Assembly (NCBI GenBank): GCA_001687465.1
Contig: LVLI01000109.1
Coordinates: 1-64,000 of the forward strand
Direction: 5' to 3'
DNA length: 64,000 nucleotides
From: Halocafeteria seosinensis
Taxonomy: Eukaryota
Every line of letters begins with the position of its first letter. The stretch's first letter is position 1. The translations under genes were made by a program, and so were the position numbers. Of the stretch, positions 44,046-60,362 are shown one piece after another. The notes beneath the pieces are model-generated. The model worked only from the letters and a program-made list of their open reading frames with translations. It was not told where the DNA came from and did no database searches.

Positions 44046-44102
44046 TAGATTTTTTTTTATAAATTTATATATATATATATAATATATTTATAAAATAATC
44101 TA
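44046..44102. repeat. AT-rich imperfect palindrome at the host/element junction
   Basis: tagatt..ttttataaat-ttatatatatatatataa-..atttataaaa.aatcta folds with bulges on both arms. Confidence 0.75.
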
Positions 44103-44491
44103 ATAGGCTAGTTAGAAAAAATTAAAAACATTAGCATCAGGCACAATTGCTCCCTTCTTGGGGGAGGTAGCGATTTTTAAAGAAAGTTTATTTTAAACCG
44201 TTATTACCCTTCATTAATGAAACTAAAAGAAAATGAACACATTTTCACAAACGATACTAAATTGTTTTTGACGCCACTTTTTTCTAAAAAGGGCTTTGGG
44301 TTAGTTATTGAAAAGGATAGTCAGTTAATGAACCTAACCAACAACGAACTTCCGTATATTCTAGATTACAATTAACAAAAGCATCCAAAATACATTCATT
44401 TTCAATTCCACCTAAAGAATACAACCATTTAGCTGTTTCTAGATGACCATTTTGACAACACCAACGAAATTCGGGGAAAAGGTTAGGAGTT

Positions 44492-44827
44492 TTAATTTTT
44501 GTTAAACAGTGTTTTAAGTTTATTTTCCCAAGAAAGATTAGGATTATTCATAAAACTAGTAATATCTACCGCATTTTCTAACTGAAGGTATAGGTCTGGA
44601 TTTTGTTGTATAAGAAATGTTTCGTGTAAATAGTCCCAGACTTCATCCCAATTAATCTGCGATTTTTGAATGTTGGGGTAATCATCTACGTTAAATTCTT
44701 TTACGATATCGCTAAGGATACCCTCTTGTTCTGTAAGAGGGTAGTCCCAAAAGTCTAAAGGTATAATGTTGTTCTCGATAATGAGAGCGGTTTCTTTGGT
44801 ATCATAGTTAGTCCATTGGTTTTCCAT
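44492..44827 (-). CDS. Hypothetical viral protein
   Basis: 111-aa ORF with an upstream AAAAATGATTT motif shared with neighbouring genes. Confidence 0.6.
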   Translation of the reverse strand: MENQWTNYDTKETALIIENNIIPLDFWDYPLTEQEGILSDIVKEFNVDDYPNIQKSQINWDEVWDYLHETFLIQQNPDLYLQLENAVDITSFMNNPNLSWENKLKTLFNKN

Positions 44828-44893
44828 TGTTTATATATGTGGTTTTGTTTAAAAAGAAAAAAACAAAATCATTTTTTTTTTCTCATTTTTGAA

Positions 44894-46006
44894 CTATTTA
44901 GAGCAAAATAGAAAGATTTCGTTGGGAAAAAATCGCATTTCTTCTTTTAGATTTTCAAGCTTGTTAGCACAAAATACTTGGCTAAAATATTGCTTCAATT
45001 TTTCAATTCTTTTCAATAGATTGGCTTTACTCCTATCTCGTTCAATATGGTATGCTATAACCATTTTCTTTACCCCTGTAAAGTCAATGTTGTCTATTAG
45101 TTCTATTTCAGCACCTTCAATATCCATCTTAATACAATCGCCTTTTTCTATTAATTCCTGTAAATTTTGAACATCTGTTTCCCAGTATTCGGTTTTATTT
45201 TTGTTCGGATAAAAGGAATTCAACCACGGTTTAGTAGGGTGTTTATAAAACTTTCTTTTATTTTCTCTATCAATACCTAAAGGTTTATCAATAATAGTTG
45301 GAATTTTAACATTTCTTTGACTAAACCAATCTTTCATGATTTCTGTATTCCTAGGGTCTGGTTCGCAAAAGTATTTAACAGAACCTCCATTCATCAGGAC
45401 TTTAAAACTAAAACAACCAATATTTCCCCCACAATCAATCCATCGTTCATAAGGTTCAATTTTAAAACTGCGTCTTTGATAGGGACATTTTCTGATTACT
45501 TCCTTGACTATTGAATTGTATTCCGGATAGTCTGGATAGAAACTGAAACAATTATTATGATACAGCATAACCGAATACCTTGTTCCTTGATGGGGTTTAT
45601 TGTAGTGAGTAATATTAGTTCCATCAAAGACTTGAGGTTTATGATTAATGTCTATTTCTTCAAGTGTTCCATTAGGATGTTCTAAGACTAATTCACCACC
45701 CGTATAATTACCTAAACCTAGTATCAAAGTATTTCCTACATTTTTCCCATCTTTATGAGGCGGACATACAAAATCTTTGTTAATGGTGGCTGATGAAAAA
45801 GGAAAATTATACTCTTTTCCTATCTTTTTTATTGCTTCCCAGATTTCTGGATACTGATAGGTTAATTTCGTGTTTCCAATTTCACTAGTAAATAGTTTTT
45901 GAAAAATGCCTAGATGAAAGGATTGTATTTTGGTATTTGAAAGTTTTTTCCGCTGAGTTGTTGGAAATGGTTCTAGCTGATTAAGTAGGTCTTCTAAAAT
46001 ATCCAT
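44894..46006 (-). CDS. 2OG-Fe(II) oxygenase (TET/JBP-like) fused to FkbM-family methyltransferase
   Basis: HxD 'PPHKDGKN', 'LGNYTGGEL', distal His and Arg 'FDGTNITHYNKPHQGTRYSV'; then 'WIDCGGNIGCFS', 'CEPDPRN', 'IKMDIEGAE'. Likely start ATG 46006, because the upstream in-frame part is translated repeat DNA. Confidence 0.75.
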   Translation of the reverse strand: MDILEDLLNQLEPFPTTQRKKLSNTKIQSFHLGIFQKLFTSEIGNTKLTYQYPEIWEAIKKIGKEYNFPFSSATINKDFVCPPHKDGKNVGNTLILGLGNYTGGELVLEHPNGTLEEIDINHKPQVFDGTNITHYNKPHQGTRYSVMLYHNNCFSFYPDYPEYNSIVKEVIRKCPYQRRSFKIEPYERWIDCGGNIGCFSFKVLMNGGSVKYFCEPDPRNTEIMKDWFSQRNVKIPTIIDKPLGIDRENKRKFYKHPTKPWLNSFYPNKNKTEYWETDVQNLQELIEKGDCIKMDIEGAEIELIDNIDFTGVKKMVIAYHIERDRSKANLLKRIEKLKQYFSQVFCANKLENLKEEMRFFPNEIFLFCSK

Positions 46007-46100
46007 ATATATTTCTGAAATACTTTGTTCCTTTATGCTTTTAAAAAACATGGCAAAACGGTTTTTTGATGTTACTTTTTTTCTAAAAAAGAACAAAGCA

Positions 46101-46373
46101 TTAGATAAGACATTCAACAGGTTCTTTAGGTTGGATAGGTTTAACAGTAGTTTTCTTTTTAGCATCTTTTTTCTTTTCCTTATTATTATTGAATTGGAGT
46201 ATATAGTTGGGTTCTTCTAACCCTAGTTTTTCAAGTCTGGCTTGAATAGCTCCTGTAGTTCGTCCTAATTCTTTGGCTATTTCTTCTTTAGAAATTTTGT
46301 TATTATAACGGGTTTTAAGGGTTTCTTCTTGCTCTGTAGTCCATTTCTTGTATGTACCTGCTTTACCTGACAT
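46101..46373 (-). CDS. Small helix-turn-helix (Myb/GcrA-like) DNA-binding protein
   Basis: 'KWTTEQEETLK....EIAKELGRTTGAIQARLEKLGL'. Confidence 0.7.
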   Translation of the reverse strand: MSGKAGTYKKWTTEQEETLKTRYNNKISKEEIAKELGRTTGAIQARLEKLGLEEPNYILQFNNNKEKKKDAKKKTTVKPIQPKEPVECLI

Positions 46374-46425
46374 TATATATGTGTTTTTCTTTTTGAAACT
46401 AGAAAAAACAAAATCATTTTTCCCC

Positions 46426-47112
46426 TCATTTTTCAGGCTCATCGTCCAGTAGATTAGCGTTGTTTTGATACGATTTACATTTCTTGGACTTATGATGTCT
46501 GGTTAGATTACCCCTACTAACTTCTAGAGAGCAGAATTCACAAGTTATTTTTTGTCTCAAATACTCTTTATTCTTTTCATACCATTGTTTATTCCATTGT
46601 TTAGCCTGTTCAAGATATTTTTCACGATTATCTTTATTCCATTGTTTAGCCTGTTCAAGATATTTTTCACGATTATTTTTCTTCCACTGTTTAACCTGTT
46701 CAATACATTTCTCCCTGTTTTGTGAGTACCATTGTGCATGCCATTGTTTAGATTTATCTTTGTTATTTTGACGATATTCTTTTTTCTCTCTAGAAGGAAC
46801 ACGCTTATTTAACGTAGCTTGTAATTCTTCAAGATAATATCGTTCTCTTTTCGCTAACTGATGGCTAGTTTCACAGGGATACTGTTCAAGCAACACCATA
46901 TCCCAGTTTTCCCAGCCACCATTTTCTCTAATAAACTGATAAACGTAGTAATCATATTTTTTATCATTTGGAATGGTGCTACAGGATTTATGTTGCCTTT
47001 TTCTCTGTTTGAAATTTGTTGTGCTTCCCACATAACAATCATTTATTGAAGGGTCTAAACATGCTATCTTGTATATCAAACCATTATTGTAATTCACTTG
47101 TTTTTTTGGCAT
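46426..47112 (-). CDS. GIY-YIG endonuclease with C-terminal zinc finger
   Basis: 'GLIYKI..CYVGST..FKQRK..H', conserved Glu in 'RERYYL', 15-aa repeats 'REKYLEQAKQWNK', C-terminal 'CEFC..LTRHHKSKKC'. Confidence 0.85.
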   Translation of the reverse strand: MPKKQVNYNNGLIYKIACLDPSINDCYVGSTTNFKQRKRQHKSCSTIPNDKKYDYYVYQFIRENGGWENWDMVLLEQYPCETSHQLAKRERYYLEELQATLNKRVPSREKKEYRQNNKDKSKQWHAQWYSQNREKCIEQVKQWKKNNREKYLEQAKQWNKDNREKYLEQAKQWNKQWYEKNKEYLRQKITCEFCSLEVSRGNLTRHHKSKKCKSYQNNANLLDDEPEK

Positions 47113-47185
47113 TTAAACTTTATAATACTTTTTAAAAGATATAACTCTAAATCATTTTTTTTGTTGGCTATAGATATAATAAAAA

Positions 47186-47371
47186 ATGGTCAGATTAGGA
47201 GGAGCAAAAGGAAAGAAAAGAAAATCGAAGTGGAACACTGTGCTGTCGGATGCTCTTAAAGCACGTTACCAAAACATACCTAAGTTAGCTCAACAGTCCA
47301 AATGGACAAGAGAACGAGTATTTAGGAATGCTGTAGAAGCAACAAAGAAATGGTATAAACCTAAGAAATAA
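47186..47371 (+). CDS. Small basic protein with N-terminal GG motif (putative core protein)
   Basis: 'MVRLGG|AKGKKRKSKWN'; paralog at 61028-61231. Confidence 0.65.
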   Translation: MVRLGGAKGKKRKSKWNTVLSDALKARYQNIPKLAQQSKWTRERVFRNAVEATKKWYKPKK

Positions 47372-47428
47372 AGCTCTTTTTTAGAAAAAATACTTTTAAA
47401 AAAGTTCTGCTATGTTTTTTTAAAAGCA

Positions 47429-47635
47429 ATGAATAATCCTAAACTAAACGGGTTACAGAAGCGAATTTTGAAGCTAAAGAAATTACAACAGTGGTTAGTT
47501 TACCGTATGATATCTGAACGATATGGTGAGGACATACTACACGTGAGTGGAAGTATAACGACTTTCTTACCGGAGCATTTAGACGATGATTTCATAGATG
47601 AACTGGATGCGTATGTTAAGAGTTTCCAGCGTTAG
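47429..47635 (+). CDS. Hypothetical protein
   Basis: 68-aa ORF bracketed by repeat modules. Confidence 0.5.
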   Translation: MNNPKLNGLQKRILKLKKLQQWLVYRMISERYGEDILHVSGSITTFLPEHLDDDFIDELDAYVKSFQR

Positions 47636-47684
47636 CGTCTTCAAAAGAATGTGTTTTTTTGACGCCACTTTTTTTTAAAAAGGG

Positions 47685-47906
47685 CTATTTTTTAGTTTTA
47701 CTTTTGGCCTTTTTCTTTCGTTGTCTTAGTTCCTTTTTAAACTTTGCTTTTTCTTCGGGGCTCGCAAGGATAAGGTCATCAATTTCCTGTTCAGTTTGAA
47801 AATTCCTGTTAGGAGCTTTTTTCTTTGTCCTGATTTTTTTCAGAAAATTAACAGCATCCTTGATTTCTTTTATAGGATTTTTTGCTCCACCTGTTGTTCC
47901 AACCAT
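47685..47906 (-). CDS. Small basic protein with GG motif (putative core protein)
   Basis: 'MVGTTGG|AKNPIKEIKDAVNFLKK..DDLILA'; paralog at 59667-60071. Confidence 0.65.
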   Translation of the reverse strand: MVGTTGGAKNPIKEIKDAVNFLKKIRTKKKAPNRNFQTEQEIDDLILASPEEKAKFKKELRQRKKKAKSKTKK

Positions 47907-47955
47907 TATTCTTATATAGCTCTTTTAGAAAAAAGTTCTTTTTTAGAAGCACAAC

Positions 47956-48687
47956 TTAAGCATATTCACGGACTCTAAGAGCTCTATCTGTTTGGTTGGA
48001 TATGGATTGGGCAATTACATCACTGCTACCATCCTGATAAACGAATAAATCAGGGTTATCATCAGACCTGAGATGAATATTAGTTAAACTATCTCCTAAT
48101 GGCTGTGGAGCATATGACCAGTGAAGCAGATAGTCGGTAGGTGTAGCCCCAACATCAAAAGCTTTACTTTGGGCGTCAGCCTTGGTATTACCAGTTCCGT
48201 CAAATACATTATCAATGGCGTCACGAGCACCAGTACTCATATTGTAAATGTAGAGCGTTCCGGCATCATCTTCCAACATAACATAAAGTTTAGAACCAGT
48301 CCGCTGTATCATTTCAAAATGAGTGGCATCAACAGCACTGGCGACATCACCCGCGACAGCTTTGTATTTGGAATCACCGGAACTCCATTGGTAGTAATAT
48401 TGGTCGGATTCACCAAGGGATATCTCCCCGCTGGGAGCTGTGACATCTACAACCATAGCGGACAATAGCGCTTCAATATCGTTTTGTTTGAGGTTGTTAA
48501 GACTGGTAATATCGTTATCGTTACTGGCAATATCAGATTGATTTTGCGCAATATCGTTTGAGTTGGTAGTCACATCACTTTGAAGAGTGGAGATATTACT
48601 TGAGTTGGTAGCTATACTAGCTCCGTTAGCGAAAACTAGGTCTCTAAGATAGTTTGAAAAGCCTCTGAACACATCACCTGCTGACAT
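47956..48687 (-). CDS. Putative fibre protein (coiled-coil stalk plus head)
   Basis: Asn-rich heptads 'IATNSSNISTLQSDVTTNSNDIAQNQSDIASNDNDITSL' followed by a beta-rich domain. Confidence 0.5.
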   Translation of the reverse strand: MSAGDVFRGFSNYLRDLVFANGASIATNSSNISTLQSDVTTNSNDIAQNQSDIASNDNDITSLNNLKQNDIEALLSAMVVDVTAPSGEISLGESDQYYYQWSSGDSKYKAVAGDVASAVDATHFEMIQRTGSKLYVMLEDDAGTLYIYNMSTGARDAIDNVFDGTGNTKADAQSKAFDVGATPTDYLLHWSYAPQPLGDSLTNIHLRSDDNPDLFVYQDGSSDVIAQSISNQTDRALRVREYA

Positions 48688-48764
48688 CTTTTTCTTATTA
48701 TATACCTATAGCTAAGAAAAAAAATGCTTTTGAATAATGTTTTGCCGTGCTTTTTCTAAAAGCA

Positions 48765-49034
48765 CTAGGGAATAGTTGAACCATCATCAAATTCTATAGT
48801 ATAGGTTTCCTTAAGATAACTGATATAATTTTCTAATTCAGTGACACGGTTCTTAAGGTTGTTAATTTCTTGGGTTAAGCTTTGAACATCGTCATCGAGA
48901 ATATCCTTAAGTTTTATTTTACCGTTAGACAATTCTAAACCGCTTCCGAGGCTCACTTTTTTGGTGATTTTGTCGGAATGTAGATACCGTTCAATAATAG
49001 TATTATCGTTATCAAGAATGAGTGCGACAGCCAT
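48765..49034 (-). CDS. Short fibre-like protein
   Basis: N-terminus 'MAVALILD...IIERYL' shared with the 52394 spike; shaft-like 'LGSGLELSNGKIKL'; coiled coil. Confidence 0.5.
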   Translation of the reverse strand: MAVALILDNDNTIIERYLHSDKITKKVSLGSGLELSNGKIKLKDILDDDVQSLTQEINNLKNRVTELENYISYLKETYTIEFDDGSTIP

Positions 49035-49165
49035 ACTGCTTTATAATAGATGATTTTAAAAAAATGCTTTTAAAAAAGCATGGCAAAACTGTGCTTTCCG
49101 CGTTAGCGTCTTCAAAAGAACTCTTTTCACATTAGCATCTTCAAAAGGCGGGCTGTTTTGCCGTG

Positions 49166-49720
49166 CTACTTTTGTTTTTGGATATCGCGGGTAAGCCAAG
49201 TTACAACTTGGTCATAGGTTTTTAAACCTAATTCCTTTTTGGCTTTATCCAAGGCTCTTTTATACTGTCCGATATCCAGATTTCTATTGCGGTATCTGAC
49301 TAAGGCGTGACGACCACAAGTATTGGAATCATCGGCCTGTAACTTGAACGGATTGTAGTAGATTGGCTTTTTTTCCAGACCTTGGGCTATTTTTTGGAGA
49401 ATTAGCGGGTTTTCTTGTCCTAACTCATCGTTCTTAGCTTCGGAAAGCCAAGCCAATGGTTTATCAGGGTATCCGCCGTAAGAATCAAAATATTCAACGT
49501 AATTGCCGTGGTCAATAAGCAAGACCCAGTGACCAAAATTATGCTTTTGGAGATATAAAACCATCAAAGCATGAGAAGGATTATCTAATAACTTACAGAT
49601 ATTATTCTTATTCAATTCATCATAGGTTTTTATAGGGACATGTAACCGTGTAAATTCTTGGAGCTGAGATTCGCTCAAGGCTATCTTTTCCAATTTCTTA
49701 ATTAGTTTCTTATTCACCAT
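49166..49720 (-). CDS. Adenain/Ulp1-like (clan CE) cysteine protease, virion maturation
   Basis: His 'GHWVLL', Asp 'EYFDSYG', Gln/Cys 'LQADDSNTCGRH'. Confidence 0.85.
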   Translation of the reverse strand: MVNKKLIKKLEKIALSESQLQEFTRLHVPIKTYDELNKNNICKLLDNPSHALMVLYLQKHNFGHWVLLIDHGNYVEYFDSYGGYPDKPLAWLSEAKNDELGQENPLILQKIAQGLEKKPIYYNPFKLQADDSNTCGRHALVRYRNRNLDIGQYKRALDKAKKELGLKTYDQVVTWLTRDIQKQK

Positions 49721-49900
49721 ATAGCTCTTTTTTAGAAAAAAGTATCTTCCGCGTTAGCGTCTTCAAAAGAACTTTAATAATTCTTTTGGAGTTCAATTCA
49801 AGTGTTTTTGATGCCACTTTTTCCTAAAAAGGGCTGTTTTGCCGTGCTTTTTTAAAAGCGAAGTTCAGGTGTTTTTGACGCCACTTTTTTTTAAAAAGGG

Positions 49901-50167
49901 CTAGGCACTAGCGATAGCACTAGCAATACCCTTGATTGATTTCTTAACTCCTGTTTTAAAAGCGTTTTTAGCCGTCTTTTTAGCACCTTCCCGAACTCCT
50001 TCTGGTAGATTATCGAAGATAGCTCTAGCGTTTTTGATTCCGAAGCCTCCTCGTTTAGTGGTTGGCTTATAAGTCTGAGATGCTAATTTAGAAACTTGAC
50101 TGAAAGATTTCTGGGGGTTTTGTTTGGCGACTTTACTGACGTGTTGATTCCAAGCTGTTTTTACCAT
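49901..50167 (-). CDS. Small basic protein with internal GG motif
   Basis: 'WNQHVSKVAKQNP..SKLASQTYK..KRGG|FG'. Confidence 0.6.
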   Translation of the reverse strand: MVKTAWNQHVSKVAKQNPQKSFSQVSKLASQTYKPTTKRGGFGIKNARAIFDNLPEGVREGAKKTAKNAFKTGVKKSIKGIASAIASA

Positions 50168-50218
50168 TCTGTCTATATAGCTCTTTTTTAGAAAAAAAGT
50201 AGCATCAAAAAATCTTTC

Positions 50219-50342
50219 CGCGTTAGCGTCTTCAAAAGAATGTTCTTTTTTAGAAAAAAAGTAACGTCAAAAAACTCTTTCGCGTTAGCGTCTTCAAAAG
50301 AATGTTCTTTTTTAGAAAAAAAGTAACGTCAAAAAACTCTTT
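50219..50342. repeat. Exact tandem duplication of a 62-bp R3+R1 module
   Basis: cgcgttagcgtcttcaaaagaatgttcttttttagaaaaaaagtaacgtcaaaaaactcttt x2. Confidence 0.95.
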
Positions 50343-50361
50343 CTAAAAGCACAAAAAGGGC

Positions 50362-50949
50362 TTAAAAAAAGTTTCGACAGATAGGACAAGACAATTTCTC
50401 CAGATGGGGGTAACAATCTAGACAGACAAAGTGATTACACCGTTTCCATAAATAAACGAGAGCCGGTTTCTCTTTGATACAAATGGGGCAGTCTTCAAAA
50501 TAAGGGTTTTTCAGAGTACTAAACGGGACACACTGGATATTGGGACGAAAATAACGACGAACGGCACTATATTGGGCTTTTTCAAGTGCTATCTGACGAT
50601 ATGACTCGCCGGAATAACAGTTTAAGTCCCAATCTGCACCGTGTTGTTCAAAGAACTTGACCATATATAGAGGAGCGGAAGTAACGACTGCCCATAAAGG
50701 AGAAAAAATCCACGGTTCTTCTTCTTGATGACATTCATTCGGATGAATATAATTAATAATTAGATATCTGACGAATTCATACTTGCGACAATGGAGGGCA
50801 TGAACGACATCAACAGGTTCAACCGGCATATGTTTTAATTCACAAGCGTATCTAAGAACCGCTAAATCGTTACATCTTTCAATGATACAATCAATCCTCC
50901 CCATTATGAAACAGGGAGTATGAGCCAAACATCCAATCACACGATTCAT
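50362..50949 (-). CDS. Ankyrin-like plus RING finger protein
   Basis: 'SPLWAVV..MVKFFEQHGAD' ankyrin-like; C3HC4 'CPIC..CNHFVCLDC..CPICR'; ATG 50949 directly after the R1 motif. Confidence 0.75.
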   Translation of the reverse strand: MNRVIGCLAHTPCFIMGRIDCIIERCNDLAVLRYACELKHMPVEPVDVVHALHCRKYEFVRYLIINYIHPNECHQEEEPWIFSPLWAVVTSAPLYMVKFFEQHGADWDLNCYSGESYRQIALEKAQYSAVRRYFRPNIQCVPFSTLKNPYFEDCPICIKEKPALVYLWKRCNHFVCLDCYPHLEKLSCPICRNFF

Positions 50950-51045
50950 ATAGCTCTTTTTTAGAAAAAAAGTAGCGTCAAAAAACTCTTCCACTCTAAT
51001 AATTCTTTTGGAGTTCAAGTGTTTTGCTGTGCTTTTTTAAAAGCA

Positions 51046-51195
51046 CTAGGGCTTGATACTGATTTTGGAACAGGTCATTTGGGAGTCTTCGTAGAGACAG
51101 CTACTTCGGCATCGTAATTTCTTAAAAAGTTTGTAGAAAAATGGTATTGCTCCCATCCCTCCGGTAATTATTAGGACTATAGTTATTATTTCCAT
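51046..51195 (-). CDS. 49-aa single-pass membrane protein (not in ORF track)
   Basis: MEIITIVLIITGGMGAIPFFYKLFKKLRCRSSC...; paralog at 59487-59639. Confidence 0.65.
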   Translation of the reverse strand: MEIITIVLIITGGMGAIPFFYKLFKKLRCRSSCLYEDSQMTCSKISIKP

Positions 51196-51231
51196 ACCCT
51201 ATACTTAAGGGTAAATAAATAAAATCCCCCT

Positions 51232-52335
51232 TTAGCGGAGTCTATACTTAATCCCTATCTTTTTAACAGGTTTTTTGCCAGTTTTATTCTTTTTGTTTTT
51301 CCTATTAGTAGTTTTGCCGTGCTTTTTTAAAAGCACAGTTTTGCCTTGACCTAGTGGTGGTGTTGGTGGTCGGTTTTGTGCTGGTGGTGGTGGTGTTGGT
51401 GGTGTTGGTGGTCGGTCTCTAGTAGATGCTTCGGGTTCAGCCGATAACATCCCTGTGCTCAGTTTCTCGATAGTAGCATTGCTAATTTTACTCCATGTAC
51501 GGATATCGGAGCTGTTTTGTAGTGTGCCAATCAATGATGCGTGACTCGTAGATGTAAGCTTATCAAAGACGGTTTGTATGTCTTGTGTACGCCCTTGTTG
51601 ATGAAAGGTTTGTCGTAGTATCGTTGTCAGAAGAAACATAATAATCAAAATTCGGAAGGGTTGCTTATTGGCTTGGATAAGTTGCCACGTAACTTGGCTG
51701 GAACTAAGAATAGCATTCAAGAGAGACTGTATTTTTTCTAACTGCTGTTCGTTAAATTTAGTTCCTTGTTTTTCTATGTTATTCATAGCCCGACCTAGTT
51801 CTTCAATCTTGACTTCAGAAATACGGGCTTTGGAACTTGTTACAGCGGAACGGACATCTTGAAGAACTTGTATGATACGTAGGTATTCACCTCGGTTTTC
51901 AGTCAATGGGAGCGTATCTTTATCAAGAATTTGTTTAGCTTGTTGCCCTTCTTGTTTGTTTTCGGCGTTACGCCGTAATAACCGTTGCTTTTCACGGACT
52001 AATTCATTTTCTTCGTTGGCGTTTTTTTTTATTAGAGCCCCTCCTGAATTGCTTTTGTTTTGGAATCGTCCAACCTCATCGGTTTCAAGAGATTGATTTT
52101 TTCCTTGATTGAATGCTCGATAGACCTTTTTGGTTTCAATTCGTTTTTGAATAAAGTTGATTTTGGCTTGTTGTAGCCGATTGGAATTAGTGAAGGTCTT
52201 CTTACTAGGCTTTTCTGTGATGTAAGGAGAATTAAAGAAAAACTTATAGGTTGGGTCACCCATACGACCATAATCAAGAGTAGGACGATGAGGTTGTTCA
52301 AACATTGCGTTGCCTTTAAATCCGCGTGAAGTCAT
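51232..52335 (-). CDS. Hypothetical helical protein with Pro-rich and basic tail
   Basis: 367-aa ORF preceded by the R1-type motif; an R2 repeat is translated in its tail. Confidence 0.6.
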   Translation of the reverse strand: MTSRGFKGNAMFEQPHRPTLDYGRMGDPTYKFFFNSPYITEKPSKKTFTNSNRLQQAKINFIQKRIETKKVYRAFNQGKNQSLETDEVGRFQNKSNSGGALIKKNANEENELVREKQRLLRRNAENKQEGQQAKQILDKDTLPLTENRGEYLRIIQVLQDVRSAVTSSKARISEVKIEELGRAMNNIEKQGTKFNEQQLEKIQSLLNAILSSSQVTWQLIQANKQPFRILIIMFLLTTILRQTFHQQGRTQDIQTVFDKLTSTSHASLIGTLQNSSDIRTWSKISNATIEKLSTGMLSAEPEASTRDRPPTPPTPPPPAQNRPPTPPLGQGKTVLLKKHGKTTNRKNKKNKTGKKPVKKIGIKYRLR

Positions 52336-52393
52336 TTCTCTATAGCTCTTTTTTAGAAAAAAATTTCTGAAAAATAACTATAAGGAATAAAAG

Positions 52394-53845
52394 ATGGCAG
52401 TAGCACAAATCTTGGATGATACGGGAAAAATTTTACAAAGATACATTCCGGATACTGAACACGATAGTTTTAGTGTAATAATTGCTTCGTCGGAAGCCCC
52501 ACAAGATGTTAAAGACAGTGCTGACTATGTTTGTTCTGGAACGGATGACCAAAACACAATTCAGAATGCTATTAATCAGGCTCAAGATGGGGATGTTATA
52601 CGGCTTACTAGTGGGAAATTTTTTATTGATGGAGGTAGTACCAACAATGGAAATGTGGCAATTAACTTATTAAGCGGAATTTCATTTCGTGGCTCATCTA
52701 GCAGTGGAACTATTTTAGAAGTTAACGCTAATTTTGATACTGCTATCAGAACGTTACATGCCGATGATAATAAAGATAATATAGCAATTCGTGATTTATT
52801 TGTTGACAACCAATGGGCAACTCGTGGAAGTCCAGCAGATGACCGTGGTCTTATAATTTCTACCTGTAGTTCGGTTGTTGTAGAAAATATACGCCTCGCG
52901 GATGCCGACGTAGGAGGTGAATTTAACGATAACACGTTATTTCGCGGTAATAATATTTTATGTTCCAACTGTAGTGCCGGTATTATTATAAATGGAACAG
53001 AAGCTAAAATGCCCATATATAACGGGATAAAGTGTGTGGATTGTAACAACGGAATACAGTTAAAAGGAGGATATACAACTTTGCGAGACTGTCAGTTATT
53101 GAACTGTAACGTAAATGGGGGAGATGGTGCTCTGTGGCTATATGGCTCTTCTCGTAACTTGATAGAAAATATTTCTATTCGTTCTGATACTCAAGGTTCT
53201 CCAACAGTAAAAGGAATTTATTTTGGAGATGATGGAGAGGGAAATCATAGTAGCAATAACAAACTGAGACAACTGTACCTTGAGAACTGTACTACAGGTA
53301 TGGACTTCGACCAATTAAATCAAACTAACTTTATTAGCGATGCTTGGTGTGTAAGCAATAACCGAGACGTATCTCAAAATCAAGGAGCACAAAACGAATT
53401 TTCAGGTCTGGATATTAGCAAAAAGATAGACCAACAGTACCTTTCCGCTATCTCCTCAACGGATGCTTCAATACGTATCAAGAATTCCACTATTGATATG
53501 TTTACCAGCACTGTCGACAATATTGGTGACCATTGTATTAGTATTGGGGGTAACGGTGATGGTACAAGAAACATTATCACGAACAATCGACTTCGTTCGT
53601 CCAAAGTATCTGGTGTGTTAGTTGAATTCTCTAACGTGGGAGAACCGAGTAACAATCCTTTCTTAATGATTAGTTCAAATACTATTTTTAATTGTGGAAA
53701 TTTTGGTTTAGAAATAAAAAATACAAAGAAATCCCTTATTACCGGTAATCTGGCGGAGAATAATACCGCATCAATTAACACTTTGAGTAATGATAGTAAC
53801 TCTGATTATACTGTGGTTGCCAATAGCTTTGCCAACCAACCATAA
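52394..53845 (+). CDS. Right-handed beta-helix (pectin-lyase-like) spike protein
   Basis: 'ADYVCSGTDDQNTIQNAINQA..GDVIRLTSGKFFI' tailspike-type start; Asn/Ile-rich PbH1-like repeats. Confidence 0.75.
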   Translation: MAVAQILDDTGKILQRYIPDTEHDSFSVIIASSEAPQDVKDSADYVCSGTDDQNTIQNAINQAQDGDVIRLTSGKFFIDGGSTNNGNVAINLLSGISFRGSSSSGTILEVNANFDTAIRTLHADDNKDNIAIRDLFVDNQWATRGSPADDRGLIISTCSSVVVENIRLADADVGGEFNDNTLFRGNNILCSNCSAGIIINGTEAKMPIYNGIKCVDCNNGIQLKGGYTTLRDCQLLNCNVNGGDGALWLYGSSRNLIENISIRSDTQGSPTVKGIYFGDDGEGNHSSNNKLRQLYLENCTTGMDFDQLNQTNFISDAWCVSNNRDVSQNQGAQNEFSGLDISKKIDQQYLSAISSTDASIRIKNSTIDMFTSTVDNIGDHCISIGGNGDGTRNIITNNRLRSSKVSGVLVEFSNVGEPSNNPFLMISSNTIFNCGNFGLEIKNTKKSLITGNLAENNTASINTLSNDSNSDYTVVANSFANQP

Positions 53846-53939
53846 GTGCTTTTAAAAAAGCACGGCAAAACTTTTTCCGCGTTAGCGTCTTCAAAAGAAA
53901 TATAATAATTCTTTTGAAGTTTAGGTGTTTTTGAAGCCA

Positions 53940-54911
53940 CTAAGAGCACAGAGCATAGTATCGGCAAACTGTTTCAGGTAGTTTAACACCGTTAGGTAGT
54001 TCAACTATTTCTTCATCTGGATGACCATACCCTAACTTAACTAAATCGTTTTTAGTGGGGGGTTTCAACTTACCACCGCCTCGTTTCACGGCGTCAGCCT
54101 TTGTCAAACCTTGGAAATTAATTAGTGAATGGTTCTTAACATTGGACTTAGCTACGCGTGGGAAGACAACTAAACCCCGTCTCAAGAATCGTCCTGATAA
54201 TTCAAAAAGTGGGTCACCTTTGATATACCAGAAACTGAAATTTTTAGGGGTTCGTAAAAGGTCTCGGGGTTGTAAAGCACCGTTATATCCGCGACCCGAC
54301 TTGCCTATTTTGAAATCCCGATGAATTTGAAGTTGAATTGCGTTGCCTAAACTATGTCCGGTTAAGAAAAAGCAAATCTCAGACATTTGGTCTTCGTAGG
54401 ATTTCAGAATTTCTGTTGTAGCTTTCGAATCCGCTTGATATCTTGGACTATCGGTCAATCGGTTAAACATAATATTCTTATCGGCGACAATGTCTTGGAC
54501 ATCTAGTTGAGTGCCACGGTAAGCAATAACAACTGAATTAACTAATTTATCTTGATAAACGGCGACTGTAGGAGTAGAAATATTGGCTTGGTATTGCCAC
54601 CAATCATTAATGAGCATAGGTCGTTTCTTGGGAGCTTCATAAGATGCCGAACAAATTTGAAAATAGCTTTTGTCACTAGGCTCTTTACAGCCTTTAAACA
54701 TTTGACCATTCTTGGCTTTGGCACGTGTCTGGATATCATCCACTACTTCTTTTTTGTCCTGCTCCGCGTTAGCGTCCTCTTGCTCGTTTTGCCCACTTTT
54801 GCTTTCTTTAGCTGTCTTAGCTTTTTTATTATTAACTTTGGTATTTACTTCTTTGGCTAGATTTTCCTGAAGTTTGTCAAGTTTTTTCAACAATTTAGTA
54901 ATACGACTCAT
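53940..54911 (-). CDS. Class-3 lipase-like alpha/beta hydrolase
   Basis: 'VVIAYRGT', nucleophile elbow 'LTGHSLG', 'GDP', C-terminal 'HSL'. Confidence 0.8.
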   Translation of the reverse strand: MSRITKLLKKLDKLQENLAKEVNTKVNNKKAKTAKESKSGQNEQEDANAEQDKKEVVDDIQTRAKAKNGQMFKGCKEPSDKSYFQICSASYEAPKKRPMLINDWWQYQANISTPTVAVYQDKLVNSVVIAYRGTQLDVQDIVADKNIMFNRLTDSPRYQADSKATTEILKSYEDQMSEICFFLTGHSLGNAIQLQIHRDFKIGKSGRGYNGALQPRDLLRTPKNFSFWYIKGDPLFELSGRFLRRGLVVFPRVAKSNVKNHSLINFQGLTKADAVKRGGGKLKPPTKNDLVKLGYGHPDEEIVELPNGVKLPETVCRYYALCS

Positions 54912-54971
54912 TATAATTATTCGTTTTAAAATCTAAGAATTTTTTGACGCTACTTTTTTATAAAAAGAGCA

Positions 54972-55472
54972 ATGACATTAATTTCACCTTGGTTTTGTTT
55001 CTATTGTCGTATAGAACCCGAACAATGGGTAGTTGAGGACTGGTTACGAAAAACATTTAACCAACTTTACCTTCGTTTGAAGTTAGAAGACGAACCGCAT
55101 TTAGCATTCATCTGGGATGCTGGAAAGAAAGAAATATGGCTACAATTCCCGCACATTTGGGTATCTCAAGAGGATTTGGAACGCTTACGTAGGACTATTA
55201 TTTGGATAGTCCAAGACAAGTTTGTGAATAAGGACATCATCGAAGATATTATCACCTTCAGCAAACCACCGGTTATTGAGGGAGGAAACCTACCTCGTCC
55301 AGTATTTATTGAAAAGGTAAGTCAAGTAGGTAAGACACTTTATTATGAAATTACTGATATTACTGACGAACTAGATGATAATACGGAAGCACAATGGGAC
55401 TATTTTAAGAAGGCTTGTTCATCAACTGGTCATCCGAATGACCCACATAGGGAATACAAAATCATCATCTAG
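54972..55472 (+). CDS. Hypothetical protein (weak resemblance to an inactive AEP primase-like domain)
   Basis: 166-aa ORF bracketed by inverted R1; 'KEIWLQFPHIWV' weakly recalls the 'GIHL.FP.I.V' motif. Confidence 0.45.
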   Translation: MTLISPWFCFYCRIEPEQWVVEDWLRKTFNQLYLRLKLEDEPHLAFIWDAGKKEIWLQFPHIWVSQEDLERLRRTIIWIVQDKFVNKDIIEDIITFSKPPVIEGGNLPRPVFIEKVSQVGKTLYYEITDITDELDDNTEAQWDYFKKACSSTGHPNDPHREYKIII

Positions 55473-55574
55473 GTGCTTTTAAAAAAAAAGTGGCGTCAAA
55501 AACCTAAACTGACTAGGACGCTGACGCGAAAAGTGTTTTTGATGCCACTTTTTTTCAAAAAGGGCTTATATAGT

Positions 55575-55829
55575 ATGTATCTTAAAGATTCCAGAGTTAA
55601 ACCAAGTCTATCATTGCTTAATACACCTGAAGACCAGTTTTTTAGTATGATAAAGGATTGGAAAAAAGAACTGATGGAATGGAGGGAAAAAAATAAAGAT
55701 TTCTCAGCAGGTGATACTGTGTCATGTGACCACCAGACCATGTATATAATGGTTAATGTTCTAGGTATAGTTCAATGTACCCCCGATATGTCTATTGATA
55801 ATTTTGAAAAGTATAAGGTATGCTTTTAA
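55575..55829 (+). CDS. Hypothetical protein
   Basis: ATG 55575 follows R1; stop lies inside an R2-type palindrome. Confidence 0.5.
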   Translation: MYLKDSRVKPSLSLLNTPEDQFFSMIKDWKKELMEWREKNKDFSAGDTVSCDHQTMYIMVNVLGIVQCTPDMSIDNFEKYKVCF

Positions 55830-55862
55830 AAGCATTTTTTTCTAAAAAAGAGCTATATAAGA

Positions 55863-56455
55863 ATGAAACTATTAGAACTATTCAGCGGAACAAAAAGTAT
55901 TGGAAAAGTATTTGAACCAAATGGTTGGATGGTGGTTTCCGTGGATAGTGATTCAAAATCTGAGCCGACTATTTGTGAAGATATTCTTAAACTTGATTAC
56001 AAATCCTTATGGCAACCAAAAGAGTTTGATGTAGTATGGGCAAGTCCACCGTGTACCGAATATTCCAGAATTTAGAATTAGCTAACAAAATTGTTCAAAG
56101 AACTTTGGAAATTATTATTTACCTTCAACCCAAATTTTGGTTTATTGAAAACCCCGATTCTGGATTGCTGAAAAATCAAGATTTTATGAAAAATATCCCT
56201 TTCACCAGAGCAGATTATTGTAAATATGGCTATAAATACCGTAAAAGAACGAGATTTTGGGGGACTGTTGAAGGTTTGGAACTGAAAATGTGTAAGTATG
56301 ATTGTCCAGCAACTGATGAAACAGGGAAAAAACATCTTACTTCAATAGGACAACACAGAACAGGAAATGGTCAAGTAGATAGGACTACATTAAATAAAAG
56401 ACATTCAATTCCACCTGCGTTATGTAAAGCATTTTATGATTACGTGTGCTTTTAA
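55863..56455 (+). pseudogene. C5-cytosine DNA methyltransferase, frameshifted near 56070
   Basis: Motif I 'LELFSGT', motif IV 'WASPPCTEYS', then in another frame motif VI 'FIENP' and motif VIII 'KRTRFW'. Confidence 0.8.
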
Positions 56456-56613
56456 AAAAGCACGGCAAAACACTTGAACTTCAAAAGAATTATTAGAGTT
56501 CTTTCTAAGACGCTAACGCGGAAAGAGTTTTGAAGTTTTTTAGATGCTTTATGCTTTTAAAAAAGCATGGCAAAACTTTTTTGATGCTACTTTTTTTTCC
56601 AAAAAAGAGCTAT

Positions 56614-57048
56614 ATGAAACGGTCTAGATTTTTTACCAGAGAGGAAAAAAGAATTATTGATGTATTGACATTTACGGACGATTGGACATTGTTAGGGTCT
56701 CCAGCTGACCCGAACTTTCGATATACATCTGATTTTGATGTAATGGGAAATGTGCCCTTTTCAGGAAAGAGCAAGAATATGGGACAGATGTTAGCTGATA
56801 TGTTGAAAAAGAAAGTAGAAACCATTCATCGTATGAAAAACGTCTATCTAGGCGATGTAAAAGCTGGGACACACAAAGGTGAAAAACTGAGGTGGAATAG
56901 AACAACTATTCGTCAAGGTTATCAGGTGCTCAGCCCTTTTAAAAAGAGTGGCGTCAAAAACTTGGTTTATTTAAGTGATGCCATTAACCAAATCGAAGCA
57001 GAGAATATCTGGCGGAAAAAGTGGATAAAGGGATACATCCTAATATAA
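56614..57048 (+). CDS. Pol-beta-superfamily nucleotidyltransferase-like protein, probably truncated by element B
   Basis: 'LLGSPADPNFRYTSDFDV' (hGS..DxD); the ORF runs into the 57012 hairpin and stops. Confidence 0.55.
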   Translation: MKRSRFFTREEKRIIDVLTFTDDWTLLGSPADPNFRYTSDFDVMGNVPFSGKSKNMGQMLADMLKKKVETIHRMKNVYLGDVKAGTHKGEKLRWNRTTIRQGYQVLSPFKKSGVKNLVYLSDAINQIEAENIWRKKWIKGYILI

Positions 57049-57217: not shown

Positions 57218-57383
57218 AAAATTACACTTAAAATTACACTCAAAATTAAGTTTTAAATTAAGTTTTAATAAGTAGCAGGCACCGTGGTCTTTAGGTTGTA
57301 GTGGGACTCTACAATGAGCGAGGCTTTATTGAGCGAGTCCTACATTATATATTTATATTTTCTCTAAATAGAAATTTTTACAA

Positions 57384-57644
57384 TTAATCAGTTCTAAGAT
57401 TGTTGTTGGAAAGGTAATTGGAAAGATATAATAGTCGGAAAAATACGTGTGATGTTGAGCCGAAAAGAGGTTCATCAGGGTTCAACTTCCCTTGTTTCCA
57501 ATTTTCATATAGTTCTTTTATATCATCAGCATCATCAGTTTCATACATTTCTGTGAAATGGGATTGTTCTTCGTCCCATAAGTAATTTATTACATAATTA
57601 ACGCAGTCAATGAAATTTTTGTGGGTTTCCTGTGTTTCCGTCAT
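57384..57644 (-). CDS. Hypothetical acidic protein
   Basis: 86-aa ORF with AAAATTGA about 37 nt upstream. Confidence 0.6.
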   Translation of the reverse strand: MTETQETHKNFIDCVNYVINYLWDEEQSHFTEMYETDDADDIKELYENWKQGKLNPDEPLFGSTSHVFFRLLYLSNYLSNNNLRTD

Positions 57645-57680
57645 ATTGGTAATTTAGTTTAAAGGTTACAATTTTAAAAA

Positions 57681-58076: not shown

Positions 58077-58188
58077 TTTCTTGGTAAATTTTATAATTTT
58101 AAAGTTTAAAAATCAATTTTTTGTTACCGGTAAAATTAAAGTAAAAAATTGAAATTTTATTTTATAAACCTATAAACAATATACCACA

Positions 58189-58479: not shown

Positions 58480-58553
58480 ATAAAATTGGTAATAATATAA
58501 TGAAACAAAAAATTGATTTTTATATTTTTGAAGATAATAAGTAATATAAAACA

Positions 58554-59458: not shown

Positions 59459-59486
59459 TTAAATCTCTTATATTTAGAGATTTAAA

Positions 59487-59639: not shown

Positions 59640-59666
59640 TCTATAATTAACCTTAGATTTTAATTT

Positions 59667-60071: not shown

Positions 60072-60178
60072 GTTTGTTTTAAGATCTAGTCCTAATTCAT
60101 TTTTACCAAAATTTCTAAGGATGTCTAGCGAGATTGTCTTTCCTATATCTTTATTAATTTCATCTACTGTTTGATTGA

Positions 60179-60319: not shown

Positions 60320-60362
60320 TTAAAAATACAATTAAAGTTTAATATTCTTGAACTTTAATTAA

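Follow-up and report, generated by a model that had tools for sequence, protein, structure and literature searches.

Hairpin repeats at the gene boundaries of a virophage-like element in the genome of Halocafeteria seosinensis: a probable promoter/terminator unit of giant virus type

In Mimiviridae, polyadenylation takes place at hairpins cleaved by an RNase III-like enzyme (PMC4402537), and Marseilleviridae follow the same scheme (PMC5413956). Virophage and transpoviron genes carry late promoters and terminator hairpins resembling those of the host virus on their flanks (PMC7031253). Herein, we describe hairpin repeats, designated R1, R2 and R3, from a virophage-like element that lies integrated within the genome of a eukaryote. 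By analogy with the Mimiviridae 'hairpin rule', transcripts of this element would be expected to end at its hairpins likewise. Overall, we consider it probable that R1–R3 constitute a portable unit of promoter and terminator that suits the transcription system of a giant virus.

Two virophage-like elements

The window, i.e., the whole stretch of 64,000 nucleotides analysed here, carries an AT-rich insert adjoining host DNA, element A (43990-57048). Its left edge is approximate, being placed where GC content drops from 46-48% to 31-38% at about 43.9-44.0 kb. The genes of element A are tightly packed and use both strands, and a BLAST search within the window found no terminal repeats of the element. 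Element B (57361-64000), a second virophage/polinton-like element, continues past the window end and contains pPolB, GIY-YIG and protease genes along with tRNA-His. Both elements are virophage-like: the cysteine proteases of the two are related to those encoded next to Sputnik-type capsid genes, and a protein-primed polymerase is encoded by B.

The virophage-type cysteine protease gene of A (49169-49720, minus strand; 49% identity to 58910-59458 of B) has relatives in six IMG/VR contigs. Four of these were scanned for ORFs: in three, the relative adjoins Sputnik-type mCP and MCP genes, and in the fourth MCP is present elsewhere on the contig. The protease also has a match in the free virophage G001 (E 4.6e-26). 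The GIY-YIG endonuclease gene of A (46429-47112, minus strand; Pfam PF01541 at 1.1e-8) is 40% identical to 61264-61791 of B. Furthermore, element A encodes a fibre-like right-handed beta-helix protein (52394-53842, plus strand; Pfam PF13229 at 2.1e-7, PHROGs minor tail protein at 7e-9) and a 323-aa protein (53943-54911, minus strand), in which a GHSLG lipase-like motif was recognized by eye only and for which Pfam, PHROGs and NCBIfam gave no family match.

R1 hairpins and the R2 and R3 modules

A regular-expression search of the whole window, covering both strands and allowing all 16 outer-stem combinations, returned 12 full R1 hairpins, every one of them inside positions 44273-56610, that is, within element A (44.0-57.05 kb). 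In all 12, the outer stem is complementary and one A is unpaired (bulged), in line with the bulged hairpins and compensatory stems proposed in the first-pass annotation. The eight copies located there by their TTTTTGA lead are all among the 12, the four additional ones being those at 49813, 55544, 50180 and 50304. Five copies are of the GCC/GGC type (GCC-a-C(T)n..(A)nG-GGC), four of GCT/AGC and three of GTT/AAC, and mixed combinations were absent. As RNA, the copies are predicted to adopt the drawn structure, with energies of -6.4 to -7.4 kcal/mol, and the core CTTTTTNNNAAAAAG occurs six times against 0.05 expected. The covariation is real but thin: three stem types need only two double changes, followed by copying.

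The GCC/GGC copies all lie on the plus strand, and two of them overlap the stop codon of an opposite-strand gene. The copy at 49880-49901 overlaps the stop codon of 49904-50167 (minus), while the copy at 47664-47685 (convergent spacer; RNA fold -7.4 kcal/mol) has its final base in common with the first position of the stop codon of 47688-47906 (minus; CTA on the plus strand). The copy at 44273-44294 faces the decayed 3' end of gene 44495-44827 (minus) and adjoins about 44484 in a sibling contig from run X1; the one at 49813-49834 sits inside a 180-nt spacer array (partial R1, R3, R1, R2, R1), and the one at 55544-55565 lies 9 nt before the ATG of 55575-55826 (plus), reading ...AAAAAGGGCTTATATAGT-ATG. 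GCT/AGC copies lead into ...CTAAAAAAGAGCTAT-ATG. They are found 1 nt before the ATG of 54972-55469 (54949-54970, plus, in a divergent spacer), 3 nt before those of 56614-57045 (56586-56610, plus) and 50365-50949 (50953-50976, minus), and 12 nt before that of 49904-50167 (50180-50203, minus; ...CTAAAAAAGAGCTATATAGACAGA-ATG). Of the GTT/AAC copies, one (46071-46094, plus) is 6 nt from the stop of 46104-46373 (minus), and two (50242-50265 and 50304-50327, minus), each with an R3 half after it, fall within a 62-nt tandem duplication; GCTATA follows neither.

Partial R1 copies on the minus strand include one (AGCTCTTTTTTAGAAAAAA...) at 47372-47402, directly 3' of the stop of 47186-47368 (plus), and three promoter halves: 47915-47948 (..CTAAAAGAGCTATATAAGAATA-ATG, outer stem unpaired), preceding 47688-47906; 49720-49753, abutting the ATG of the protease gene; and 52341-52379, preceding 51235-52335 (minus). 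The last belongs to one of two divergent spacers (52336-52393), where the promoter half is kept and the hairpin 5' arm lost, and the plus-strand gene 52394-53842 has a look-alike word, TTTCTGAAAAATAACTATAAGG..ATG. On the plus strand, the promoter half at 55834-55862 (TTTTTTTCTAAAAAAGAGCTATATAAGA-ATG) precedes a C5-methyltransferase ORF, directly 3' of an R2-like hairpin enclosing the stop of 55575-55826, and at 53926-53942 there is only the 5' half of R1, the remainder being replaced by the stop codon of 53943-54911 (minus). An R2/R1 hybrid (55473-55503, minus) lies directly 3' of the stop of 54972-55469 (TAG-GTGCTTTTAAAAAAAAAGTGGCGTCAAAAAC), and a GCC/GGC copy with one extra C in its T run (56935-56961, minus) is inside ORF 56614-57045.

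R2 (GTTTTGCCGTGCTTTTTCTAAAAGCAC) abuts the stop of 48768-49034 (minus) at 48739-48765 (plus; -8.0 kcal/mol) and lies directly 3' of the stop of 52394-53842 at 53846-53871 (plus; -7.6 kcal/mol). Further copies are at 46033-46058, 49064-49089, 49836-49860, 51021-51046, 51311-51336 (within a CDS), 56446-56471 and 56551-56576. R3 (TTCCGCGTTAGCGTCTTCAAAAGAA..TTCTTTTGAAG; 53875-53921, plus), the strongest hairpin, has other full copies at 49747-49796 and 56474-56523 (inverted) and halves at 47636-47652, 49096-49120, 50216-50240 and 50278-50302, with predicted folds of -13.7 and -12.2 kcal/mol. As the first-pass annotation had it, R2 and R3 fill the remaining spacers as shuffled modules, truncated or hybrid. 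The host DNA of the window contains none of R1-R3. Such modules may have spread between spacers via recombination or gene conversion, which would also account for the hybrids, halves and tandem duplicates.

Inverted full or partial copies were likewise said to bracket single genes, and four such genes were found: 49904-50167 has a full R1 on both sides, while 47688-47906, 50365-50949 and 54972-55469 have one full and one partial copy each. This bracketing, together with a hairpin whose single extrahelical base is constant and whose outer stem covaries, might lead one to suppose that R1 is an attC-like, structure-recognised recombination site, the genes between inverted copies being cassettes and the recombinase being encoded elsewhere. 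R copies inside two ORFs, GIY-YIG nucleases in both A and B, and the order of the four genes of B paralogous to A genes, which differs from that in A, would agree with such a system. So would a contig from X2, where the protease and RING genes are joined by 71 letters and gene 49904-50167 with both its repeat arrays is missing. However, the sides of contig joints at repeats are only 20-43 letters long and lie inside repeats; this is what short-read graphs give at any repeat, and the breakpoints are unreliable. Integrons have one site per same-strand cassette, unlike the inverted site pairs and genes on both strands in A, where every gene has its own promoter-like word. As already claimed from the sequence, no recombinase is visible in the window: scans of all ORFs with Pfam, PHROGs and NCBIfam found no tyrosine or serine recombinase, HUH or transposase family in A or B. 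Moreover, element B has a GIY-YIG gene and yet no copies of R1-R3 (57.4-64 kb); its paralogous genes are indeed reordered, with repeats absent. Keeping in mind also the fixed distances to ATG and stop codons and the viral hairpins described below, we regard a cassette system as very unlikely.

Placement at gene starts and stops

The 3' arm of R1 faces the gene at 0-12 nt in all nine gene-adjacent full copies, for which simple arithmetic gives p of about 0.002 under random orientation. On the two strands of 47113-57048 there are 20 RCTATA words, of which ten (seven counted by script plus three overlapping ATG) are in sense, -1 to 19 nt before an ATG, and serve 10 of 16 genes, where arithmetic predicts about 0.4. 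Two convergent spacers (47636-47684 and 53846-53939) contain hairpins only, GCTATA being absent. Upstream of the left-hand genes 46429-47112, 44495-44827 and 46104-46373, the word AAAAATGATTT is found instead of R1; left-hand gene 44897-46006 is without it.

Gene ends show a corresponding pattern: at 13 of 15 in the repeat region, a hairpin predicted at -6 kcal/mol or better overlaps the stop or starts within 25 nt, and the stop codon itself lies within several of them. Non-R hairpins account for two of the 13, at 51235-52335 and, as TTGGGGATTATCCCCAA, after 56614-57045, which suggests that structure rather than one sequence matters. The spacer before 50365-50949 keeps a hairpin without keeping R in the X1 sibling contig, since the 37 other letters replacing 50953-51052 (R1, R3 and R2) hold their own short palindrome. 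Element A has 14 perfect hairpins of 8 bp or more, 12 of which are outside coding sequence, although non-coding DNA makes up 21% of its bases (Fisher p 6e-7).

Several observations count against a punctuation role. Three full R1 copies internal to arrays touch no gene; a full hairpin persists in the divergent spacer 54912-54971, although nothing there calls for a terminator; comparable hairpins are found at only 3 of the 9 gene ends of B and at only 1 of 4 in the left part of A; and R2 and R3 have no exact matches outside the window. The copies inside ORFs (R2 at 51311-51336, R1 at 56935-56961) look more like insertions of mobile DNA than expression signals. These two copies, the tandem duplication, the halves and hybrids, and the R-free spacers at the same places in sibling elements would fit selfish palindromic repeats, MITE-like or REP-like, multiplied in tolerated non-coding space with no expression role; a dispersed repeat of about 250 bp, which contains the hairpin and itself lies in both orientations in a giant-virus-like contig, points the same way. 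Such an explanation covers element A and some giant viruses. However, it would lead one to expect neither the single polarity towards genes, nor ends 0-12 nt from ATG or stop codons, nor GCTATA only at gene starts and lost in convergent spacers. By eye, no target-site duplications were seen. We therefore find selfish repeats unlikely. Of the two readings offered in the first-pass annotation, a promoter/terminator unit fits all positional tests run and also the occurrence of the same hairpin word in viral genomes, whereas recombination or cassette shuffling gained no support, given the absence of recombinase families, the non-integron geometry and the lack of reliable breakpoints.

The hairpin in giant-virus-like contigs and a free virophage

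In one IMG/VR contig, which encodes an NCLDV capsid protein, Rpb1 and D5 primase, the fetched parts contain 36 intergenic copies of the word TTTTTGAYGCYACTTTTTT. The word recurs in a 118-kb metagenome contig; a reversed control word gave 14 single matches and no multi-copy contigs. Across these two giant-virus-like contigs, there are 28 intergenic hairpins of the form GACGCCAC(T)n..(A)nGTGGC with the same polarity as in A and no cassette structure. Their 3' arm points to a gene start at +8 to +126 (11 in range) or to a convergent gene end at +3 to +93 (15 in range). At least one gene end adjoins 24 of the 28, but chance alone would bring this to about 75%, and the count by itself is therefore no proof of terminator use in these contigs. 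The hairpin partner is AAAAGTGGC there versus AAAAAGRGC in A, and no relatives of A or B proteins were found in the fetched giant-virus loci. Among solved structures, iridovirus capsids are closest to the capsid protein of the IMG/VR contig (E 1.7e-106). To our knowledge, every known virophage helper is a mimivirid.

In these contigs, the word forms arrays with a 25-nt period, and it is better conserved than its hairpin partner. It is thus conceivable that the GAYGCYAC word and hairpin serve in replication, packaging or genome partition, as binding or cruciform sites at the DNA level, and not in transcription. However, element A has more than 20 sites in 13 kb, one per gene boundary, and an origin or packaging signal needs far fewer; why the sites are coupled to ATG and stop codons would be left unexplained as well. 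We give this possibility hardly any credence.

A complete free virophage genome of 28 kb encodes a Sputnik-type MCP (E 1.4e-55), an A-like protease and an A32-type ATPase. The R1 word with its hairpin occurs there only once, overlapping the stop codon of the ATPase gene: TAG-CCACTTTTAAAAAAAGTGGCGTCAAAAA, the window equivalent being TAG-CCCTTTTTAAAAAAAAGTGGCGTCAAAAAC.

Returning to the promoter/terminator unit, we propose that an R1 directed toward a gene start would act as a promoter (TTTTTGAYGCYAC - T run - CTA - A run - GAGCTATA - ATG), with transcription probably starting at or after GCTATA. At a gene end, R1, R2 or R3 would form an RNA hairpin at the predicted end of the transcript. The helper might be a giant virus carrying the GACGCCAC hairpin, and it would end and polyadenylate transcripts at these hairpins. 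Most likely, R1-R3 serve this integrated virophage-like element as gene punctuation and were borrowed from a giant virus whose relatives share the hairpin word.

Gene content of elements A and B

Bases 1 to ~43,900 of the window are ordinary eukaryotic DNA with a GC content of 46–50%, the long ORFs of which encode a DENN-domain protein, glycine dehydrogenase, an NB-ARC/WD40 protein, a protein kinase and SHQ1. This host DNA also contains the palindrome GTACATGTACACTACATGTAC in two identical copies (5367–5387 and 5578–5598), 211 nt apart. From ~44.0 kb, GC content falls to 31–38% and remains low up to the window end. The AT-rich part is composed of two sections, element A (~43,990–57,048) and element B (~57,361 to beyond 64,000), both having small genes densely packed on both strands.

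Element B encodes a protein-primed family-B DNA polymerase (Pfam DNA_pol_B_2, 3.6e-45), a GIY-YIG endonuclease and a tRNA-His with the anticodon GTG (60362–60434, minus strand), which lies inside the element, flanked by a protein gene on each side. The 3' end of ORF 58554–58907 consists of two inverted pieces of B's polymerase gene (58802–58913 versus 62288–63086); the copied pieces include the ...SLYPTAM... motif, and the arms are 85–87% complementary. This 3' end represents either a rearrangement within the element or a duplicate that has decayed.

Element A encodes an FkbM-type methyltransferase, a small GcrA-like HTH protein, a GIY-YIG endonuclease, a RING protein, a beta-helix fibre-like protein and a C5 DNA methyltransferase split over two frames. 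The last of these genes (55863–56452, plus strand) occupies frames 55863–56072 and 56036–56452, and a sibling contig from X1, one of three contig sets (X1–X3) from sequencing runs with sibling copies, carries 40 extra letters at 56067/56068. In the FkbM-type methyltransferase ORF (44897–46006, minus strand), an N-terminal match to a Tet/JBP 2OG-Fe dioxygenase stayed sub-threshold (E 0.0017, 18 bits versus a cut-off of 34.9). ORFs 51235–52335 and 54972–55469 had no usable match in the protein atlas.

Four paralogous pairs are common to A and B, namely the GIY-YIG endonucleases (40% identity), a 184-aa protein (49%), a lysine-rich protein (38%) and a small basic protein (32%), and their order differs between the two elements. 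A putative fifth pair, recognized by eye, comprises small single-pass membrane protein ORFs at 51078–51197 (minus strand, ~39 aa) and 59484–59639 (minus strand, ~51 aa). A 45-nt tandem repeat of 3–4 units occupies the C-terminal half of A's GIY-YIG gene (46565–46793), and a related stretch is present in B's paralogue (61382–61475).

The 184-aa protein resembles an adenain-type cysteine protease, and six relatives in IMG/VR were retrieved with an alignment of its A and B copies. ORFs were scanned in four of these six contigs: in three, the relative immediately precedes minor and major capsid genes of Sputnik type; the fourth has a Sputnik-type major capsid protein (MCP) at another place on the contig. 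Because of their gene content and the protease relatives near Sputnik-type capsid genes, we regard A and B as endogenous virophage-like elements, B being mavirus/polinton-like. MCP, penton and packaging ATPase gave no family match in the window (Pfam), and the protease is the only part of the morphogenesis module in A and the seen part of B. Element A may be defective, or interrupted by B; no terminal repeats of A were found within the window.

Bulged hairpins at gene boundaries of element A

R1, a hairpin with a bulged A and a variable outer stem, was searched for in the whole window by a regular expression in which the two variable stem positions could take any combination. All 12 full copies lie in A; five have the stem type GCC/GGC, four GCT/AGC and three GTT/AAC, two of the last three representing a single 62-nt tandem duplication. 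Stem pairing was read from direct enumeration; a MAFFT alignment of the 12 copies put the 3' arm wrongly. The unpaired A is constant in every copy, and none of the 12 stems is mismatched. The loop-proximal core occurs six times against 0.05 expected (a 120-fold excess), RNA folding of the copies matches the drawn hairpin (−6.4 to −7.4 kcal/mol), and R1 is strongly conserved in sequence as well as in structure. Two further hairpin modules, R2 (stem GTGCTTTT/AAAAGCAC, tail GGCAAAAC) and R3 (CGCGTTAGCG plus stem CTTCAAAAGAA/TTCTTTTGAAG, −12 to −14 kcal/mol), fill the remaining spacers as wholes, halves and hybrids. Rfam contained no family for R1–R3, returning two sub-threshold miRNA look-alikes and one real tRNA.

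The first-pass annotation had described R1 as a hairpin with one unpaired base whose inverted copies flank genes on both sides, R2 and R3 as modules of the other spacers, and B as carrying paralogous genes in another order without any of these repeats. All 12 copies conform to the first description, mapping of the copies confirmed the second, and the statements on R2/R3 and on B likewise hold. The compensatory changes it saw in the outer stem are real too, although they consist of two double changes that were then copied.

All nine gene-adjacent full copies have the 3' arm (A run-G-RGC) facing the gene, at a distance of 0–12 nt. At gene starts, R1 lies on the gene's own strand, belongs to the AGC type (GGC once) and leads into a TATA-like word, forming the junctions ...TTTTTTCTAAAAAAGAGCTAT-ATG, ...GAGCTATATAGACAGA-ATG and ...GGGCTTATATAGT-ATG; the upstream word, ...T run-CTA-A run-GAGCTATA, is located 0–19 nt 5' of the ATG. 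The promoter half alone is found in five more genes: in three, the outer stem is unpaired or an adjoining R2 replaces the 5' arm; in one, the stem is partly paired; and in one, there is only a look-alike word. RCTATA occurs 20 times in the 9.9-kb repeat region. Half of these occurrences (seven counted by script and three overlapping the ATG) lie in sense between −1 and 19 nt upstream of an ATG, and 10 of the 16 genes are served in this way.

Where a gene ends, R1 is found on the opposite strand, belongs to the GGC type and has as its last base the first base of the stop codon; the mRNA would therefore read UAG-CCCUUUUU...AAAAGUGGCGUCAAAAAC. R2 abuts or encloses the stop of four genes, namely 48768–49034, 52394–53842, 55575–55826 (with an R2-like stem) and the methyltransferase ORF. 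Both convergent spacers contain nothing but hairpins; one of the two divergent spacers has the promoter half only, and the other retains a full R1. Between 47.1 and 57.05 kb, a hairpin of −6 kcal/mol or lower is found at the stop or within 25 nt of it for 13 of 15 gene ends (two of these hairpins being unrelated to R1–R3), and a comparable one for one of four gene ends in A's left part and three of nine in B. Perfect hairpins of at least 8 bp, a count to which the bulged R1 does not belong, lie outside coding sequences in 12 of 14 cases, with CDS-free DNA representing 21% of bases (p 6e-7). From this placement, the typical head-to-tail spacer can therefore be drawn as stop, terminator hairpin (antisense R1 or R2), R3, sense R1 with GCTATA, and ATG.

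Judging from the sequence, R1 is probably a dual-use unit, a promoter in sense and a predicted 3'-end hairpin in antisense. Sense R1 would act as the promoter, antisense R1 would form the 3'-end hairpin of the transcript, and R2 and R3 would provide additional 3'-end or insulating hairpins. The compensatory stem types and the constant bulge would be accounted for if pairing were under selection, be it in the RNA or in extruded DNA, and the hybrids and duplications by spacer-to-spacer copying through recombination. A combined promoter/terminator unit was one of two options proposed by the first-pass annotation, and it fits the anatomy of gene starts and gene ends in A.

Such punctuation has precedents. 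The late promoter and terminator hairpin of the host virus were reported to flank virophage and transpoviron genes (PMC7031253); in Mimiviridae, mRNAs are described as polyadenylated at palindromic hairpins cleaved by an RNase III-like enzyme (PMC4402537), and Marseilleviridae are reported to obey the same hairpin rule (PMC5413956). What is seen in A agrees with these host-virus signals and with the hairpin rule. Like A, virophages and transpovirons (Sputnik/Zamilon with Mimiviridae, mavirus with CroV) are reported to have a giant-virus-type promoter word before genes and a hairpin after them (PMC7031253). Like virophages, A is also a small parasite element and itself encodes virophage-type genes. 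Unlike in virophages, the promoter and terminator of A are two faces of one near-palindromic unit with a constant bulge and compensatory stems, and this unit occurs together with two other hairpin families as shuffled modules. The hairpins of the hairpin rule are not known to be related in sequence, whereas those of A belong mostly to three repeat families, one of which also carries the promoter; polyadenylation within the hairpin is predicted for A. The likeness to Mimiviridae, Marseilleviridae and Pithovirus consists of palindromes between genes, just 3' of stops, and of a single palindrome reported to serve both genes of a convergent pair (PMC4402537, PMC5413956).

Elements A and B seem to use, in addition, a second promoter class unconnected with R1. 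The word AAAAAATTGATTTTTA is located 30–50 nt 5' of the ATG in four B genes (57387–57644, 57684–58076, 58189–58476 and 58554–58907; interval 57645–58553), and AAAAATGATTT at the same distance in three left-hand A genes (spacers 44828–44893, 46374–46425 and 47113–47185). AAAAAATTGATTTTTA contains the mimivirid early-promoter word AAAATTGA, and in sequence both words look like the mimivirid early motif. With an early-motif-like word beside R1, A may therefore have two temporal promoter classes. A AAAATTGA early motif has been reported as common to a polinton-like virus and its helper (bioRxiv 10.1101/2022.07.28.501842).

Turnover of modules and the cassette-like appearance

The other option proposed by the first-pass annotation was that R1 serves as an attC-like recombination site in a cassette system. 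R1 resembles integron attC sites in its imperfect hairpin with an extrahelical base, its compensatory changes and its position adjoining single small genes, although its sequence is strongly conserved as well. Three observations leave this option a low probability. In a sister-strain contig from X2, the protease and RING genes are joined by 71 letters, without gene 49904–50167 and its two repeat arrays; one sibling copy has a 37-letter R-free spacer where the window has R1, R3 and R2. An R2 copy (51319–51336) and an R1 copy (56935–56961) are located inside ORFs 51235–52335 and 56614–57045, respectively, so that repeat sequence is translated at the protein tails, which suggests that a module was inserted or that the original stop was lost.

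The geometry, however, is unlike that of integron cassettes: R1 lies inverted on both gene sides, overlapping start and stop codons, and the genes of A, a eukaryotic virus-like element, occupy both strands. Integron cassettes share one orientation, carry a single attC at the 3' end and are mostly promoterless, whereas 10 of 16 genes here have their own RCTATA within 19 nt of the ATG. An integron array also adjoins attI, Pc and the gene for an IntI-type tyrosine recombinase. By eye, attC core sites do not match R1. As the first-pass annotation had seen, the visible A and B contain no recombinase; no recombinase, integrase or transposase family matched any ORF between 44.0 and 64.0 kb (Pfam, PHROGs, NCBIfam). 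The joints at repeats in X1–X3, short-read contig sets of one study in which contigs break at repeats and diverged sibling copies are many, were short-sided (20–43 letters) and were not counted as rearrangements. With the wrong geometry, no recombinase family within the window and short joints, integron-like recombination was not borne out, and we assign it a low probability.

Overall, these comparisons show that modules, together with at least one gene, are gained and lost among closely related elements, a turnover compatible with ordinary recombination at repeats and not requiring a site-specific system. R1–R3 resemble the dispersed palindromes of giant viruses and bacterial REP/MITE sequences, which also appear as short palindromes in many spacers, as tandem arrays, halves and hybrids; unlike these, R1 shows strict polarity and spacing to genes, with no transposase partner seen.

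Related hairpins in giant-virus-like contigs and a free virophage

The 19-nt R1 lead word matched 16 IMG/VR contigs, 14 of them by single matches that appear to be chance or coding; a reversed control word gave 14 singletons and no multi-copy contig, and the exact R2 and R3 patterns gave zero matches each in IMG/VR. In contig IMGVR_UViG_3300044731_002225 (55.7 kb), the parts examined contain 36 sites, all intergenic and often forming 25-nt tandem arrays that close with a perfect hairpin GCCAC(T)n..(A)nGTGGC. This contig encodes an NCLDV major capsid protein, Rpb1, a D5-type primase-helicase and an RNB nuclease. The closest solved structures to its capsid are iridovirus capsids (1.7e-106, versus 7.6e-15 for PBCV-1); a homology search with the capsid gave 2561 relatives on contigs of up to 705 kb, and because these bear no informative names, the lineage is placed by the closest solved structures only. 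The GACGCCAC arrays of this contig (matched loci L002–L007, L012–L017 and L024–L026) lie within a ~250-bp composite repeat, which also holds a second hairpin, CACGGCTTTTT..AAAAAGCCGTG, faintly R2-like, and occurs in both orientations in at least eight spacers.

The R1 module was also found in a 118-kb metagenome contig, whose genes in the parts examined are giant-virus-like and not hallmark genes, and in four short ones. At least 126 metagenome loci match the R1 word; among the matches listed, the full hairpin is present only in seven JACCDO010420528.1 loci (L077–L083) and in L123, L139, L140 and L163. The two large contigs contain 28 full hairpins with the 3' arm towards the nearer gene boundary (a start or the end of a convergent gene). 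Convergent spacers are over-represented among them (~12 of 28 by our own count); 24 of the 28 stand beside any gene end, a figure not far from chance. The GAGCTATA part of R1 is not shared as such by the giant-virus-like contigs, in which the 5' word and hairpin are abundant, and tBLASTn of all A and B proteins against the giant-virus-like loci examined gave no match.

The sole remaining single IMG/VR match, G001, is a complete 28-kb free virophage genome with direct terminal repeats, encoding a Sputnik-type capsid gene (1.4e-55), a protease like that of A (4.6e-26) and an A32-type ATPase. Its one R1-like hairpin sits in a convergent spacer and overlaps the stop codon of the ATPase gene, with the register found in the window. 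G001 further contains a repeated hairpin of its own, TATCCGnAAGGATA, which precedes a AAAAATGA-type word and TTTATAAAAAGTTTAAGT at three gene ends or boundaries (L010, L164); repeated terminator-promoter modules are therefore not peculiar to A. As in virophages, a regulatory signal of A, here the 5' word plus hairpin of R1, recurs in giant-virus-like contigs; these contigs, which would represent a putative helper, have an iridovirus-like capsid rather than a demonstrated mimivirid one.

It is tempting to go further and to see R1–R3 as portable "expression cassette ends" that move between a giant-virus lineage and its virophages, with genes exchangeable by recombination and a helper with an iridovirus-like capsid, although we find this rather unlikely. 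Single genes would be exchangeable by recombination between copies because identical promoter/terminator hairpins flank them as inverted pairs, and the GIY-YIG nuclease of the element might cut extruded hairpins, aiding such recombination. If true, this would be a eukaryotic-virus analogue of cassette shuffling, with a helper outside the known mimivirid helpers.

As for R1 as promoter/terminator punctuation, it is already known that virophages copy expression signals of their helper. What appears to be new is that a single family of covarying bulged hairpins combines the two signals, that this family has spread as modules through an element, and that the GACGCCAC hairpin word ties together an endogenous element, a free virophage and an uncultured giant-virus lineage. 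Two R1-specific words returned only unrelated papers in the literature searched; supplements of bioRxiv virophage-promoter preprints may list similar motifs.

If our interpretation is right, a single short hairpin would carry the start signal of virophage genes as well as their end signal, with stem pairing under selection, and would offer a compact testable model of gene recognition by giant-virus transcription machinery; it would also mean that expression punctuation can produce an integron-like appearance. The GACGCCAC hairpin would then be a sequence tag, so that partners could be predicted from regulatory words alone, possibly beyond mimivirids. Finally, two neighbouring elements that differ in promoter vocabulary (R1/GCTATA as against the AAAATTGA type) would suggest that a single host genome keeps a store of defences or parasites, each adapted to a different giant virus.
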